From assembly GCA_964522265.1 (NCBI GenBank), contig CAZFVS010000052.1:1-7595 (forward strand): a stretch of 7,595 nucleotides of DNA, given 5' to 3'. The notes below the pieces were generated by a model, which saw nothing but the letters and a program-made list of their open reading frames with translations, was not told the DNA's origin and did not search any database. Shown here piece after piece: positions 2,582 through 7,543 of this stretch. Source of the DNA: an uncultured Gammaproteobacteria bacterium (GTDB lineage: Bacteria > Patescibacteriota > Microgenomatia > Daviesbacterales > UBA10151). Each line of letters opens with the position of its first letter. Position 1 is the first letter of the stretch. The translations under genes and the position numbers were made by a program.

Positions 2582-2588
2582 GAACACT

Positions 2589-2608
2589 CCGCGGACTAAA
2601 GTCCGCGG
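2589..2608 (-). repeat. IS right-end stem-loop (perfect 8-bp stem, 4-nt loop), overlapping the tnpA stop codon
   Basis: CCGCGGAC (2589-2596), TAAA loop, GTCCGCGG (2601-2608). The tnpA stop (plus-strand CTA at 2596-2598) lies inside it. The last TnpA residues, GLRTRGL, are encoded by the hairpin region. Confidence 0.8.
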
Positions 2609-3030
2609 GTTCTTAACCCTGGTTCCTTAACATAATGTTTATCCTGTTCTCTAACGTATTTTGCAACCTTTGCTAAATCTTTTGTTCCAACTGTTGCAGC
2701 ATAATACCCATCTGACCAGAAATGCTTGGCCCAAATACTCTCCACTGAGCCTGGGTACATTTCTCTTAATTTTTTAGATGTACCACCCTTAATCAGTTGC
2801 ATCATACTTGCTGGTGAATCATCACTTTTGGTTTGCATGAGCAAATGGACATGATCAGGTTGGATATTAAGTTCCAACACCTTCCACTCGTTTACCTGGG
2901 CACAAAACTTAATCATTCCACACAAAGTGTTTTTTAAATTACCTACCAACCTTCTTCTTCGATATTTAGGTATAAATACAAAATGATATACCAATTCTGT
3001 TACACAATGCGCTTGTCTGACCAATCCCAT
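2596..3030 (-). CDS. tnpA: IS200/IS605-family Y1 (HUH) transposase TnpA
   Basis: 144 aa. It has the N-terminal YHFVFIPKYRRRRL motif, the HUH motif PDHVHLL, KGGTSKKLR, and the catalytic-Tyr region FWSDGYYAATVG. No tnpB is adjacent. Confidence 0.9.
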   Translation of the reverse strand: MGLVRQAHCVTELVYHFVFIPKYRRRRLVGNLKNTLCGMIKFCAQVNEWKVLELNIQPDHVHLLMQTKSDDSPASMMQLIKGGTSKKLREMYPGSVESIWAKHFWSDGYYAATVGTKDLAKVAKYVREQDKHYVKEPGLRTRGL

Positions 3031-3065
3031 CCTAACACTATTTTACCCTACCTGTTTTGTGCCCT

Positions 3066-3110
3066 GCCTCTTTCATCCCCGCCCTAAAAGAGGGCGGGGG
3101 TCTCAGAGGC
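3066..3110 (-). repeat. IS left-end stem-loop (9-bp GC stem, extended by an outer 6-bp stem)
   Basis: Inner stem CCCCGCCCT (3077-3085) pairs with AGGGCGGGG (3091-3099), with loop AAAAG. Outer pairing is GCCTCT (3066-3071) with AGAGGC (3105-3110). It lies upstream of tnpA on the element's sense strand. Confidence 0.75.
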
Positions 3111-3117
3111 TTTCACT

Positions 3118-3150
3118 AGCATAAAAATCCAGAAATTTTCTTTCAGTCAT
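3118..3150 (-). pseudogene. Thioredoxin paralogue, N-terminal fragment (MTERKFLDFYA)
   Basis: The minus strand reads ATG ACT GAA AGA AAA TTT CTG GAT TTT TAT GCT, then runs into IS sequence (..SESL, TGA at 3103-3105). FLDFYA matches the strand that precedes WCGPC in thioredoxins (the neighbouring Trx has LIDFWAP-WCGPCK). Confidence 0.65.
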
Positions 3151-3151
3151 C

Positions 3152-3310
3152 TTAAAGTTTGGCTATCCTAAGCCTAGCTTCCCAAACAGAATCTTTTTGT
3201 TTATCCAGCTGATTTAAAACAAGCAGAACAAAAAGCATCTTTTGTTTGAATCTTCTCAAATCTTCCAATTCCTGTCTCTCTTTTCCATCCAATGGCTGTC
3301 TTTCTAACAT
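3152..3310 (-). CDS. Possible small protein (52 aa), unknown function
   Basis: My own translation: MLERQPLDGKERQELEDLRRFKQKMLFVLLVLNQLDKQKDSVWEARLRIAKL. Its TAA stop (3152-3154) sits 1 nt from the ATG of the thioredoxin fragment (3150), which suggests translational coupling. It is below the ORF-track length cutoff and has no recognisable motif. Confidence 0.25.
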   Translation of the reverse strand: MLERQPLDGKERQELEDLRRFKQKMLFVLLVLNQLDKQKDSVWEARLRIAKL

Positions 3311-3359
3311 TTAGTGCAAAGATATATCATTTTTGGATCTTTTTCAATATGCAACATGG

Positions 3360-3368
3360 TGTTAATAT
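3360..3368 (+). promoter_or_regulatory. Candidate extended -10 promoter element for the helicase gene
   Basis: TGtTAATAT matches the TGnTAnnnT extended -10 pattern, 38 nt upstream of the ATG at 3406. There is no good -35. GGAG at 3387-3390 is a possible but distant ribosome-binding site. Confidence 0.3.
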
Positions 3369-3405
3369 TGGATAGTTCTTGGAAGTGGAGAAGTACATTA
3401 TTTAT

Positions 3406-5448
3406 ATGCTCAATTTACTTGATGACCTAAACCCTATCCAGCAAAAAGCAGTTCAGGCTGCAGAGGGTCCAACCCTGATTTTAGCAGGTGCAGGCTCTGG
3501 AAAAACCAGGGTTTTGACCTACAAAGTGGCTTTTCTAATATCTGAGAAAAAAATCCAACCTGAGAATATTTTAGTTCAAACTTTTACCAATAAAGCCAGC
3601 GGTGAAATGAAAGAACGGATACGTAAACTTCTGACATCTGATATCCGACATCAGACATCCGAGCCTATGATGGGCACTTTCCATTCAATCTGCGCAAAGA
3701 TTCTCCGCCGTGAAGGCCATAACATCGGCCTAACTATTTCATTCTCGATTTATGACGAAAACGATGCTATGGATGCTATCAAAATTGCCATGGGCAATTT
3801 AAATCTTGCTACCAAACAGGTAAACCCGGGTGCAGTCAGACATACAATTTCCAGTGCCAAAAATGAACTGATCTCCGAATTAGAATATCCTCAATATGCC
3901 AGCGGGTTTTTCCAAGAAACAGTGGCGAAAATTTACCTGGAATACCAAAAAATCCTGCGGGAAAATCAGGCCCTGGATTTTGATGATCTTTTAATGAAAA
4001 CCATCCAGCTTTTCCAGACAGCCCCAGAAATCCTCGCCCGCTATCAAAACCAGTTTAAATATATCCTGGTAGATGAATACCAGGATACCAATGCTGCCCA
4101 ATATCAATTAATCAAATTATTGGCAAAAAGATACCGTAATATTTGTGTGGTAGGTGATGCTTCTCAGGCAATTTATGGCTTCAGAGGCGCTGATTTTAGA
4201 AATATTGTCAATTTCCAAAATGATTATCCTGAGGCAAAAGTTTTTAATCTTGAACAAAATTACCGTTCAACCCAGATTATTTTGGATGCAGCGCAAGCTG
4301 TAATTTCTCAAAATAAACTTCACCCGATTTTAAAGCTTTGGACAGAAAAAAAAGAGGGTCCAAAGATTGCTATTTATCAGGCTAAATCTGAGGTGGATGA
4401 GGCAATGTTTATTTTAAATGAAATAAGAGGTTTTGTTTTGCGGGGTGACGCCGAAGAGGGATCCCGAGCGTCGACCGCAGGAGGTTTGTTAACCTCCGAG
4501 GACGCACTCGGGACACTGAGGCGGCAGGACCCCAAAAAACATATCTTAAAACTTTCTGATTTTGCAATTCTTTACAGAACCAATGCCCAATCCCGAGTAA
4601 TCGAGGAGATCTTTTTAAAAGCAGGCCTTCCATACAGGCTAGTAGGAGGCGTCCAGTTTTATGAGCGAAAAGAGATTAAAGATGTTTTGGCTTATCTTAG
4701 ATTAGTAGCAAACCCTACGGATTCTGTTGCCAAAAAAAGAATAGAAAAAATTGGCAAAGGCCGCGCTCAAAAGTTTTATGAATTAATAGACGTCATTGCG
4801 AGCGGAGCGAAGCAATCTCAAAAAAACGAGATTGCCACGTCCTCCGATGGACATCGGAGTCCTCGCAATGACGGATACCACACTTTACAACTCATGGACT
4901 TAATCCTAGAAAAAACAGGCTATTTAGAATATCTTGATGACGGGACAGAACAGGGCAAGTCCAGAATTGAAAATGTTAAAGAGCTCCGTTCTGTAGCAGA
5001 ACAGTTCCCCAATTTAGTACAGTTTTTAGAAAATGTAGCTTTAGTCCAGGATAATTACCATCCAGATCAGACATCAGATATCAGACATCAGATATCAGAT
5101 TCAGTAACTTTAATGACCTTACATGCCTCCAAAGGTTTGGAATTTCCAACAGTTTTTATTGTTGGCATGGAAGAAGGATTATTCCCCCATTCCCGTTCCA
5201 TGTTAAATCCCGAGGAGATGGAGGAAGAGAGAAGACTGGCTTATGTGGGAATTACCAGGGCAAAAAGTAGACTTTTCCTAACTTATACCAGAACCCGTCT
5301 TTATTTTGGTACCAGAAGTAATAATTTAGTTTCCCGTTTTTTAGCAAACATCCCTGAACATTTAATAGATCAAAAATTTTCTTCAAAACTGATTGATGAT
5401 TTCCGGGATGATGTTTCTACCCTTGACGAAGATGACTGGCTAAATTAA
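3406..5448 (+). CDS. pcrA: ATP-dependent DNA helicase, PcrA/UvrD (superfamily 1A)
   Basis: Motifs in order: Q motif LNPIQQKAV, I AGAGSGKT, Ia TFTNKASGEM, TFHS, II VDEYQDTN, III VGDASQAIYGFRGA, IV ILYRTNAQSR, GGVQFYERKEIKD, V LMTLHASKGLEF, VI RRLAYVGITRAK. The ORF track begins at TTG 3379. I prefer ATG 3406 (MLNLLDDLNPIQ), which matches the usual N-terminus of this family. Confidence 0.9.
   Translation: MLNLLDDLNPIQQKAVQAAEGPTLILAGAGSGKTRVLTYKVAFLISEKKIQPENILVQTFTNKASGEMKERIRKLLTSDIRHQTSEPMMGTFHSICAKILRREGHNIGLTISFSIYDENDAMDAIKIAMGNLNLATKQVNPGAVRHTISSAKNELISELEYPQYASGFFQETVAKIYLEYQKILRENQALDFDDLLMKTIQLFQTAPEILARYQNQFKYILVDEYQDTNAAQYQLIKLLAKRYRNICVVGDASQAIYGFRGADFRNIVNFQNDYPEAKVFNLEQNYRSTQIILDAAQAVISQNKLHPILKLWTEKKEGPKIAIYQAKSEVDEAMFILNEIRGFVLRGDAEEGSRASTAGGLLTSEDALGTLRRQDPKKHILKLSDFAILYRTNAQSRVIEEIFLKAGLPYRLVGGVQFYERKEIKDVLAYLRLVANPTDSVAKKRIEKIGKGRAQKFYELIDVIASGAKQSQKNEIATSSDGHRSPRNDGYHTLQLMDLILEKTGYLEYLDDGTEQGKSRIENVKELRSVAEQFPNLVQFLENVALVQDNYHPDQTSDIRHQISDSVTLMTLHASKGLEFPTVFIVGMEEGLFPHSRSMLNPEEMEEERRLAYVGITRAKSRLFLTYTRTRLYFGTRSNNLVSRFLANIPEHLIDQKFSSKLIDDFRDDVSTLDEDDWLN
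3629..3663 (+). repeat. Degenerate heptamer tract (TTCTGAC ATCTGAT ATCCGAC ATCAGAC ATCCGAG) inside the helicase CDS
   Basis: Five 7-nt units fit ATCNGAN. The unit ATCTGAT is the reverse complement of ATCAGAT, which gives a TCTGAT/ATCAGA stem (3637-3642 with 3650-3655). The tract encodes TSDIRHQTS. Confidence 0.6.
4441..4533 (+). repeat. 93-nt GC-rich imperfect palindrome, in frame (31 codons), inside the helicase CDS
   Basis: My count is about 63/93 G+C, against about 19/60 in the preceding 60 nt. The central stem is GGAGGTT (4480-4486) with AACCTCC (4491-4497). Outer pairings are CCCGAGCGTC (4463-4472) with GACG-ca-CTCGGG (4501-4512), GCCG (4450-4453) with CGGC (4522-4525), and GGGGT (4442-4446) with ACCCC (4529-4533). 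Confidence 0.75.
4792..4872 (+). repeat. 81-nt palindromic element with three stems, in frame (27 codons), inside the helicase CDS
   Basis: The closing stem is GTCATTGCGAG (4792-4802) with CTCGCAATGAC (4862-4872), perfect over 11 bp and 12 bp if C4791/G4873 are included. Inner hairpin 1 is GCAATCTC (4812-4819) with GAGATTGC (4828-4835). Inner hairpin 2 is CTCCGAT (4842-4848) with ATCGGAG (4853-4859). Confidence 0.8.
5066..5104 (+). repeat. Tandem heptamer array ATCAGAY x5.5 inside the helicase CDS
   Basis: ATCAGAC ATCAGAT ATCAGAC ATCAGAT ATCAGAT TCAG, preceded by the degenerate unit ATCCAG (5060-5065). It encodes QTSDIRHQISDS. Confidence 0.8.
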
Positions 5449-6168: not shown

Positions 6169-6186
6169 TTTCTTTGCTTGCCAATC
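6130..6186. other. Inverted repeat spanning the stop codon of the 3D-domain gene, in the convergent gene junction
   Basis: TTGGCAAGC (6132-6140) is the reverse complement of GCTTGCCAA (6176-6184), extendable by G-U and G-C pairs. The loop is about 35 nt and no U-tract follows on either strand, so a terminator role is doubtful. Confidence 0.3.
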
Positions 6187-6201
6187 CTGAGCTTGTCGAA
6201 G

Positions 6202-6226
6202 GGCTGGTCAGCACAATACATTGATA
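6202..6226. repeat. Copy A of a 25-nt direct repeat (GGCTGGTCAGCACAATACATTGATA)
   Basis: 22/25 identical, in the same orientation, to 7519-7543. It lies just 3' of the last gene of the minus-strand block and follows the GC-rich motif CCTGAGCTTGTCGAAGGG (6186-6203). Confidence 0.7.
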
Positions 6227-6231
6227 TTTAT

Positions 6232-6957
6232 CTACTTTAAGAATTTAAAACTGCCAAGTATTTGTTTTGGATCAAGCGGATTTGGGTTCTTCTTGTAGTC
6301 CCCGTTTACATCCTCAATCTCACAAGATACACTGTCAATTTCTACAACATACGAAGACGAACTATGCGGAATAATTATAAAGTCATCAACACATAAACCA
6401 TCACCACTGCGGTATAAGTAAGCCTCCAGAGGAGACTCCATTCTTTTAACAACATTCGGCGCAGGTTCTCCATTTCCATCAATCACCCACCTTTTATTTC
6501 TTGTATCAAATCTGTAAATTGCTCCTGCTGGTTGATCTATAAGTTTATATTGACCCAAACTATCTTTAAAAACATTGACGGTTAAGAAATTTATTTCCTC
6601 TATTTTAAAACTTACAACTTCAATCTTTTTTTCTTCTCCGGTTGGTCGTAATTCTATACTTTTGTAACTTCCTGGATACTTTAACTCAAAACCATACTCT
6701 TCGTTCTTATAACTTTTCCAATTTCCCCCGATTGAATCGGGGTTTGCAGTTTCATTAGAAGGGGTTTGGGATGGTTGGGGTTTTGGGGATTGGGTCACTA
6801 CATTTTTAGTAGGATTTTTAACTTGAGTAAAATAATAAATTCCCCCACTCAAAGCAATTAAAACTACCAACCCCATAAGCATCAAAATTAGGGCAGCACC
6901 TTTTTGTTTACACTGAGCGGACTTGTGGTGAGCGGAGTCGAACCAGTCGAAGTGCAT
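6232..6957 (-). CDS. Membrane-anchored hypothetical protein (N-terminal TM helix, Pro/Ser/Thr/Gln linker, beta-rich extracytoplasmic domain)
   Basis: 241 aa. It has KQKG followed by the hydrophobic stretch AALILMLMGLVVLIALSGGIYYF, then the linker QSPKPQPSQTPSNETANP. Next comes NWKSYKNEEYGFELKYPGSY, a motif I recall as common at the start of secreted or anchored hypothetical proteins in CPR-type genomes. The first ~15 codons lie in repeat-like DNA, so the start is uncertain. Confidence 0.7.
   Translation of the reverse strand: MHFDWFDSAHHKSAQCKQKGAALILMLMGLVVLIALSGGIYYFTQVKNPTKNVVTQSPKPQPSQTPSNETANPDSIGGNWKSYKNEEYGFELKYPGSYKSIELRPTGEEKKIEVVSFKIEEINFLTVNVFKDSLGQYKLIDQPAGAIYRFDTRNKRWVIDGNGEPAPNVVKRMESPLEAYLYRSGDGLCVDDFIIIPHSSSSYVVEIDSVSCEIEDVNGDYKKNPNPLDPKQILGSFKFLK
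6911..6957. repeat. GC-rich repeat-like segment with internal direct repeats, forming the 5' end of the membrane-protein ORF
   Basis: TGAGCGGACTTG (6914-6925) and TGAGCGGAGTCG (6929-6940) are near-identical direct repeats. GTCGAA occurs twice (6937-6942 and 6945-6950). GTCGAAG-n-GC is shared with 6196-6204. Confidence 0.5.
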
Positions 6958-6985
6958 AAATTAATCATAGCAGATATTGGAAAAA

Positions 6986-7518: not shown

Positions 7519-7543
7519 GGCTGGTCAGCACATTATATTGACA
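7519..7543. repeat. Copy B of the 25-nt direct repeat (GGCTGGTCAGCACATTATATTGACA)
   Basis: 22/25 identical to 6202-6226. It lies immediately 5' of the DUF4258 ORF. On the minus strand it contains a perfect TATAAT (plus coords 7532-7537) 14 nt upstream of the GTG at 7517, but no convincing -35. Confidence 0.7.

Follow-up and report, generated by a model that had tools for sequence, protein, structure and literature searches.

In-frame palindromic selfish DNA in proteins has so far been regarded mostly as something peculiar to Rickettsia and paralleled in the mitochondria of yeasts. The Rickettsia palindromic elements (RPEs; Ogata et al. 2000) form families of palindromic repeats of about 100–150 nt that are inserted in frame in unrelated genes (PMC10969869). 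The GC clusters of yeast mitochondria, of about 30–60 nt, are flanked by AG/TAG repeats read as target duplications and include in-frame insertions in var1, and GC clusters located in mitochondrial genes of Magnusiomyces are bypassed during translation (PMC8811140). REPINs are extragenic, reach tens to hundreds of copies per genome and are found together with a single-copy RAYT gene flanked by REPs (PMC3116915). Classical bacterial MITEs (miniature transposable elements with inverted repeats; Correia, ERIC, BOX and others) are small and multicopy and occasionally generate in-frame fusions (PMC10969869). The element addressed here is a GC-rich palindrome found at positions 4441–4533 of the contig CAZFVS010000052.1 (7,595 bp; the whole of this stretch is hereafter called the window), within a gene encoding a UvrD/PcrA-type helicase. 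It is very probably a mobile or recombining palindromic repeat that is tolerated in a loop of the helicase, and it belongs to a repeat family whose copies, when compared, show movement from locus to locus and from genome to genome.

The window is a complete NCBI contig whose best relatives belong to Candidatus Daviesbacteria (Microgenomates, candidate phyla radiation or CPR). The host gene (3406–5448, + strand) encodes an apparently intact superfamily 1 helicase of 680 aa, recognized by its Pfam domains (UvrD-helicase, 7e-91; UvrD_C, 3e-65), its match to PcrA 1pjr (E = 3e-168) and its fold; the closest helicase relative, P0002, is 82% identical. Within this gene, the sequence 4441–4533 (+ strand) corresponds to a net in-frame insertion of 31 codons (93 nt; RGDAEEGSR...RRQDP), delimited by its GC content, by the length of empty orthologues and by a profile match, and considered as the conserved core of what is called below a type-A element. 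It forms helicase codons 346–376 and encodes the peptide RGDAEEGSRASTAGGLLTSEDALGTLRRQDP, the open reading frame (ORF) reading ...FVLRGDAEEGSR... and ...RRQDPKK... across its two edges. G and C make up 67.7% of it, but 35.5% of the adjoining 200 nt on either side and 38.9% of the remaining gene; the original prediction, which announced a jump to about 68% GC from a context of about 32%, was therefore accurate for the element but too low for its context (36–39%).

As also predicted, the segment is an imperfect, codon-aligned palindrome of 93 nt, whose stems and apical hairpin could be located. The outer stem pairs GGGGT (4442–4446) with ACCCC (4529–4533) and the inner stem pairs TCCCGAG (4462–4468) with CTCGGGA (4507–4513). 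The apical hairpin GGAGGTT-TGTT-AACCTCC (4480–4497, + strand), identified from sequence and fold, is the variable centre that defines the subfamily: it is common to the window and to the copy L009, and the copies L015 and L032 carry variants that still pair. The left arm (4442–4466, + strand) includes two motifs that are invariant in the alignment of the family (A2, 27 copies), GGGGTGAC (4442–4449) and GAAGAGGGATCCCG (4453–4466), and supplied the pattern used to scan genomes. The right arm (4507–4533, + strand), defined by the fold and the same family alignment, includes CTCGGGA and the invariant terminus GGCAGGACCCC (4523–4533). An nhmmer profile built from the 27 copies matches window positions 4436–4537 (E = 7.5e-19).

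Because the pairing extends into the flanks GTTTTG...CAAAAAAC, the palindrome spans about 4435–4540 (+ strand), i.e. about 106 nt or 35–36 codons. The fold, the motifs and the length of the empty state indicate that the element itself probably extends this far, so that it would reach about 6–7 nt beyond 4441–4533 on either side. The core is bordered by the motifs GTTKCGAG...CGAGCAAC (V[AS]R...EQ) at two sites of helicase genes (site 1, which is the site of the insert in the window, and site 2, located in another loop) and at other loci; since this outer stem travels to different sites ('class-1' copies), it is part of the element. The predicted RNA fold of the segment with 10 nt of flank reaches -56.4 kcal/mol, against -35.0 ± 3.7 kcal/mol for 200 dinucleotide shuffles, none of which folds as well (z = -5.84), and the DNA fold of the segment also exceeds that of shuffled sequences (z = -4.60). 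No covariance model of Rfam 15 matches a sequence overlapping 4435–4540 at E ≤ 1.

The insertion is in frame and in a loop. Indeed, the alignment with PcrA 1pjr breaks at ...IREAVERGE348 and resumes at Y351RDFAVLYRTNAQ (YRDFAVLYRTNAQ, from 351 onwards), leaving the 34 window residues 349–382 without counterpart. PcrA has only two residues at this position; the gap had rightly been described as short, although it had been put at about eight residues. In an AlphaFold2 model built on 33 orthologues, residues 347–378 are predicted as a coil of low confidence (predicted local distance difference test, pLDDT < 50) between the helix 329–345 and the motif-IV strand 386–390, and the remainder of the model superposes on the crystal structures of PcrA (3pjr, template modelling score TM 0.73) and UvrD (2is4, TM 0.76). 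The suspected location in a surface loop thus agrees with both the alignment (between PcrA residues 348 and 351) and the model. The ORF is continuous from 3406 to 5448, and motif IV (LYRTNAQSR; 4570–4596, + strand), which is located 12 codons 3' of the insert, is complete, as had been claimed; it is invariant in the 33 orthologues and aligns with AVLYRTNAQSR of PcrA. All the other helicase residues that are invariant in these orthologues are also intact in the window protein.

The state of site 1 was scored in 102 Daviesbacteria orthologues carrying both anchor motifs (HPIL and LYRTNAQ). The spacing between these motifs is 47 residues in 40 of them and does not exceed 57 residues in 74, compared with 83 in the window. 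Globally, 74 sites are empty, about 6–7 are occupied by type-A elements (P0004, P0018, P0035, P0088 and P0092 among them), four by type-B elements (P0002, P0013, P0016 and P0091) and about 17 by other families. Type B displays the same termini as type A (GGGGTGRC...GRCAGGACCCC) with a different interior, and the other occupied orthologues carry GC-rich palindromes encoding at least three or four unrelated peptide families. In P0006, the two termini alone remain (CGAGGGGTGACAGC and AGGCAGGACCCGGAG), which looks like the result of an internal deletion. Empty sites, which the original prediction proposed to look for in related genomes, are therefore frequent. The nearest of them (P0003, P0007–P0010, P0014 and P0019) are shorter than the window by exactly 31 codons, and the modal empty state is shorter by 36 codons, i.e. 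by the full palindrome of 106–108 nt. Furthermore, the peptide is found only where the DNA is a GC-rich palindrome, and not as a sequence conserved across orthologues of other composition, a finding that would have spoken for native coding sequence. On a neighbour-joining tree, parsimony requires at least 19 changes between occupied and empty states, and at least six changes for type A. The loop is therefore a recurrent landing site and not the place of a single old insertion.

An assembly artefact, either a chimeric join or a collapsed repeat at 4430–4545, might be suspected in a contig as short as 7.6 kb. Such an origin is extremely improbable, given that the frame and both flanks are continuous, that orthologous flanks align on either side and that independent assemblies from NCBI, ENA, Logan and JGI show this kind of insert at an identical codon position; moreover, sister copies do not differ across two and four independent metagenome contigs, and L009 and L032 are reproduced base for base by independent metagenome assemblies.

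The distribution of the family was examined in one genome per GTDB species by using the pattern GGGTGACNNNGARGAGGGNTCCCG, a true copy being defined by the presence of the right terminus CAGGACCC 71–97 nt downstream. Right termini accompany 24 of the 29 matches, and the other five, all found in high-GC genomes, are chance matches. The true copies are nearly all from Daviesbacteria, Microgenomates and other Patescibacteria, and profile searches yielded additional, diverged copies. The further copies that the original prediction proposed to search for thus exist, in unrelated genes as well as in spacers. Several third-party assemblies are labelled 'Gammaproteobacteria', evidently wrongly, as the contig of L011 and that of the Daviesbacteria-like L007 are one and the same. 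Two type-A copies, L021 (4543–4646) and L025 (4182–4285), which are 100% identical, come from a genome that bears the label Planctomycetia, has a GC content of about 48–50% and codes for a NuoM-like subunit; this may mean either that the family extends beyond CPR or that the bin or its label is wrong.

About 19 of 28 copies are located within ORFs, in both orientations. According to Pfam, the host genes are those of UvrD helicase (sites 1 and 2), L1 (rplA, three genomes) and L4 (rplD, two genomes), as well as dinB, gyrB, dnaX, polA and tgt. All these ORFs are intact and every genic copy keeps the frame and is free of stop codons. The remaining copies, about nine, occupy short intergenic spacers and begin 3–15 nt past a stop codon. 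The elements range from about 80 to 106 nt. Within ORFs, the 5' half is read in a single frame per orientation, giving GDxEEGSRR... or GPASSVSRR..., even though other frames are often open; this usage fits a selection filter for harmless, hydrophilic peptides. A search for host proteins with a padded GDxEEGSR peptide profile gave a single match, the 30-aa queries being defeated by the word index and the size of the database. A metagenome scan with the core of the window subfamily returned re-samplings of two known loci, and neither new loci nor empty alleles, and a scan of viral contigs gave no match to the element and no sign of a phage vector.

Since length varies across orthologues at this position, the insert could be viewed as a native, fast-evolving and lineage-specific helicase loop whose palindromy is incidental. 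However, the same DNA is present in rplA, rplD, dinB, gyrB, dnaX, polA, tgt and spacers, its GC content is 68% against 39% in the remaining gene, its fold is exceptional (z = -5.8) and it is more conserved than its host gene, all of which make a native loop hardly credible. The proposal that this is inserted DNA and not native coding sequence is thus borne out by the copies in unrelated genes, the empty sites, the loop position, the composition and the fold.

The identities between copies point to movement. Copies from the same genome located at different loci share a mean identity of 0.90 (n = 15 pairs; up to 1.00), whereas copies from the same orthologous site in different genomes share 0.68 (n = 13), which is the background value of random pairs (0.68). 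L021 and L025 are identical yet lie in different spacers. The window core, from helicase site 1, shares 96% identity with the copy L009, located at helicase site 2 (92% over 104 nt by BLAST), whereas the two helicases share 69.9% identity at the protein level and 70.4% at the DNA level; the element is therefore more conserved than its host gene. The window copy is also 90% identical to L015, an intergenic copy from the genome of the closest relative, and to L032, a copy located in tgt. The closest orthologue (82% identical) holds at site 1 a type-B element with the same termini, and it shares with the window an unrelated 81-nt element at site 2 (96% identity).

Such patterns could also have arisen by concerted evolution, if the inserts were ancient and immobile and if their likeness within a genome resulted from gene conversion. 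In agreement with this, similarity follows the genome and not the site, several lineages carry inserts in the same loops of the helicase, rplA and rplD, the termini common to types A and B could serve as recombination handles and no transposase was found in the loci searched. This explanation, which we hold to be rather unlikely, has to accommodate at least 19 changes of occupancy among the 102 orthologues, unrelated repeat families in the same loop and the full identity of L021 and L025 in different spacers; above all, a 96%-identical copy at a different site of a 70%-identical helicase (L009) requires movement or horizontal transfer.

A mobile or recombining repeat would be closest in behaviour to the RPEs. 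Both consist of short palindromic repeats belonging to several families and inserted in frame in many unrelated, often essential genes, both code for a conserved peptide at positions where it is tolerated by the protein fold, and no transposase or mechanism is known for either. In the present case, palindromes of about 100 nt are found at many loci, in frame in unrelated genes whose ORFs remain intact, and at a position compatible with the fold. Unlike RPEs, they reside in CPR bacteria and not in Alphaproteobacteria, measure 80–106 nt, are strongly GC-rich in a genome of 36–40% GC and have many copies in spacers. To our knowledge, repeated hits of several families on one loop have not been described for RPEs. 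By analogy of behaviour, these elements can thus be regarded as a new family working like an RPE; membership of RPE-1 to RPE-10 is not claimed, as host lineage and base composition differ.

The family also resembles the yeast mitochondrial GC clusters: in both cases, GC-rich palindromes with variable loops lie in AT-rich DNA, in intergenic regions as well as in frame in a protein gene, are mobile or propagated by gene conversion, and merge or shuffle between copies. The clusters, most of which are intergenic, are organellar and shorter, whereas the family found in the window has no flanking direct repeats. Like REPINs, the elements are imperfect hairpins of about 100 nt made of two inverted arms, with conserved asymmetries, genome-specific subfamilies and a presumed single-stranded hairpin as substrate, but about two thirds of the copies lie in ORFs, few of them were detected per genome and no RAYT was found in the loci searched. 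Like MITEs, they are small, lack a transposase ORF and have terminal inverted repeats (GGGGTGAC... and ...CAGGACCCC). However, classical MITEs show target-site duplications and usually have a recognizable parent insertion sequence (IS), whereas the copies examined here show no such duplication and no parent IS with the same termini was found in 374 kb of element-bearing loci. In targeted full-text literature searching, no report of elements of this kind in CPR/Patescibacteria was found.

Compensatory changes have preserved the hairpin. In the alignment A2, 94.2% of the cells of the consensus hairpin are paired, compared with 81.1 ± 1.0% after column shuffling (0 of 500 shuffles as high) and 21–45% in slid controls, and the covariation score is 0.372 against 0.148. 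Compensatory (double) changes affect 11 of 24 pairs, including the outermost ones, and every copy retains the conserved asymmetric bulges, GARGAGGG on its left side and GGCAGG on its right side. Among the cells that deviate from Watson–Crick pairing, 30 are G·T (nine pairs) and only two A·C. Furthermore, in 22 of the 27 copies, the + strand (GGGTGAC...CAGGACCC) has a better fold than the complementary strand, by -3.9 kcal/mol on average and whatever the orientation of the host gene; the predicted difference is large in subfamilies such as those of L027 and L014. These data are a hint that the folded form that matters consists of a single strand, and of one of the two in particular; as the orientation in the host mRNA varies, this strand would be DNA or a transcript of the element itself.

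So stable a fold and so conserved a stem could indicate that the hairpin acts in the helicase mRNA, by modulating stability or providing an RNase III site, by causing a translational pause or by a programmed bypass of the 'byps' type, for which the mitochondria of Magnusiomyces offer a precedent (PMC8811140), and that it has been retained for this function. A function of this kind is quite improbable: copies are found in both orientations in genes and also in intergenic regions, the G·T asymmetry tracks the strand of the element and not that of the mRNA, and all genic copies are in frame and stop-free, which would be needless for bypass. Moreover, a 'byp' would be expected to break the frame and to be skipped, and a GC cluster to carry short terminal direct repeats (AG/TAG), whereas no direct repeats were found here and the genic copies keep the frame. 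The hairpin is not an intrinsic terminator either, as it is not followed by a T-run.

The sequences that border the copies are complementary to each other. Examples of such inverted flanks are GGTCAAT...ATTGACC, CTGTGAC...GTCACAG, ACAT...ATGT and, in the window, GTTTTG...CAAAAAAC. The complementarity between the two flanks of a copy exceeds that between flanks of different copies in all but 5 of 10,000 permutations. Pairs like AC/GT and GT/AC show that the flanks are not direct repeats. Between L021 and L025, the cores are identical whereas the inverted flanks differ, so that these flanks cannot result from slow compensatory evolution. Template switching at quasipalindromes can homogenize and expand inverted repeats (PMC7202029, PMC13100816); candidate explanations for these flanks are such switching or, alternatively, a preference of the element for inserting at the centre of short palindromes.

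Several other readings were considered and rejected. The motifs CGAG...CGAG are not a 4-bp target duplication, as they move with the element to different sites and form a tandem G·A mismatch within the stem. Integron attC sites have the order RYYYAAC...GTTRRRY, which is the reverse of that of the outer motifs 5'-GTT...AAC-3', and the copies are not found in cassette arrays. A likeness to Tn3-family inverted repeats (GGGGTC...CTCAGTG) is limited to the window subfamily, is not accompanied by a 5-bp duplication and was judged coincidental. Finally, the element is too small for an intein or an intron, has no splicing motifs and preserves the frame.

Various results weigh against the interpretation of the insert as a mobile repeat. 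The copies examined lack a target-site duplication, their flanks being inverted and not direct. In the 374 kb of element-bearing loci searched (about 20 genomes), there is neither a homologue of the Y1 transposase TnpA encoded by the window nor a long element bounded by the same ends. No filled/empty pair of helicase or TGT neighbours is close enough to fix the boundaries of the insertion: the nearest helicase neighbours are all at most 83% identical and the nearest TGT orthologues at most 74%, the TGT loop itself being variable. Only one to four copies were detected per genome, with a strict pattern and in partial genomes. The similarity within genomes could partly reflect gene conversion and not new insertions, and the statistics overstate independence because of the relatedness of the copies. 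In a DNA palindrome, template switching from arm to arm can produce compensatory changes mechanically, without structural selection. Finally, the window copy is itself strand-symmetric (-51.9 versus -52.3 kcal/mol), and this, together with the phylogenetic relatedness of the copies, makes the strand asymmetry a lead and not a result.

A candidate for mobilization in trans is the IS200-like Y1 transposase gene located 1.4 kb upstream (Y1_Tnp ORF, 2596–3030), the insert being then a palindrome-associated miniature element (PATE) or a REPIN. Y1/HUH enzymes act on strand-specific single-stranded DNA hairpins and leave no target duplication (PMC6006769, PMC3116915), habits that match the strand asymmetry and the absence of duplication. 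Nevertheless, the hairpins flanking the IS (2590–2612 and 3078–3100) share no sequence with the element, comparison of the IS ends with all loci by blastn-short gave no match to it, no TnpA homologue occurs in the 374 kb of loci, no other Y1_Tnp gene was seen and the proportion of genic copies is unlike that of REPINs. Mobilization by this enzyme is thus improbable.

In the interpretation favoured here, the window copy is a member of a dispersed family of GC-rich palindromes, which appear to be non-autonomous selfish DNA of Daviesbacteria and related CPR/Patescibacteria, and it landed in an insertion-tolerant loop of helicase domain 2A. The number of its nucleotides is divisible by three and no stop codon interrupts the frame in use, so that the ribosome most likely reads straight through it. 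The insert is thus likely translated, which would add a disordered, hydrophilic peptide of 31–36 residues and leave the helicase motifs intact; it would presumably give no benefit to the host. Copies landing elsewhere or in other frames would be removed by selection, a filter that would leave the same few loops of essential proteins repeatedly occupied. Movement might involve a single-stranded hairpin formed by one of the strands, without target-site duplication and with an enzyme supplied in trans, a mechanism that can be put forward only tentatively. A more far-reaching and rather doubtful scheme would be an undescribed mechanism combining a strand-specific single-stranded DNA hairpin, inverted flanks specific to each copy, repeated targeting of the same permissive loops in proteins of replication, repair and the ribosome, and horizontal transfer among CPR that outpaces the divergence of host genes. 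Were it true, several hairpin families would be competing for the essential proteins of CPR, which would serve them as a permanent landing pad.

These data place the phenomenon in core replication, repair and ribosomal genes of Daviesbacteria, where several families compete for the same loops, and suggest that it is a general outcome in small, AT-leaning and gene-dense genomes. They account for part of the puzzling length variation and of the low-complexity GC-rich peptides of CPR proteins. They also call for caution from annotators and phylogeneticists, as such segments are not homologous protein sequence. With subfamilies that are specific to a genome and copies that in some cases share 100% identity, the family offers a tractable system for the movement of hairpin repeats without a recognizable transposase.

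Other insertions are found in the same helicase gene. The 81-nt palindromic element (4793–4873; 53% GC; VIASGAKQSQKNEIATSSDGHRSPRND) is inserted in frame in another low-confidence loop. It is 96% identical to its counterpart at the orthologous site of L001, the two genes being 81% identical, and peptides of the same family (IATS..PRND) fill site 1 in P0030, P0054 and P0064. The statement that two distinct element types sit in one gene holds as far as their sequences differ but was an understatement, since the loop of site 1 took at least five or six families across orthologues. A third kind of insertion consists of in-frame tandem heptanucleotides (GACATCA/ATCAGAT, 4–6 copies; 3633–3662 and 5066–5104) encoding SDIRHQTS-like peptides, in two loops (pLDDT < 50) that are variable and of low complexity in orthologues.

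Variable regions of this kind also occur in other Daviesbacteria proteins. In TGT (L038 4791–6332), GGFQAFSLG and KITEEGV enclose an insertion region of about 100 aa, which differs in content in almost every orthologue and includes other families of repeat peptides (DSRLRGND, IASSPSASRND and VIPAKAGI). The N-terminal extension of L1 (rplA; L010, L012 and L026) and a loop of DinB (L014) behave like this region.

The genes around the helicase encode an MGMT-like protein, two thioredoxins, GlnA, the IS200-like transposase and a G5/3D-domain protein. The IS200-like element (2582–3148, minus strand) is inserted within a thioredoxin gene, just ahead of the WCGPC active site: the N-terminus MTERKFLDFYA is encoded at 3148–3116 and the rest (...FRWCGPCKAMEP...) from 2587. 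L001 has an intact orthologue of this thioredoxin (MERKLLDFYADWCGPC). Two intergenic copies of a 23-nt repeat, GGCTGGTCAGCACAWTAYATTGA (6185–6224 and 7519–7541), are 91% identical and may represent another small repeat family; the first copy adjoins CCTGAGCTTGTCGAAGGG, which also resembles 1610–1632. The GC-rich sequence 6901–6960, at the 5' end of the ORF 6232–6957 (minus strand), is 98% identical to positions 13425–13484 of L001, far above the surrounding genes, and may be a further embedded repeat. Lastly, on another Daviesbacteria contig (L005), a reverse transcriptase gene (RVT_1; 3124–4514) located about 6 kb upstream of the helicase gene adjoins a bAvd-like gene, a pair that is the signature of a diversity-generating retroelement.

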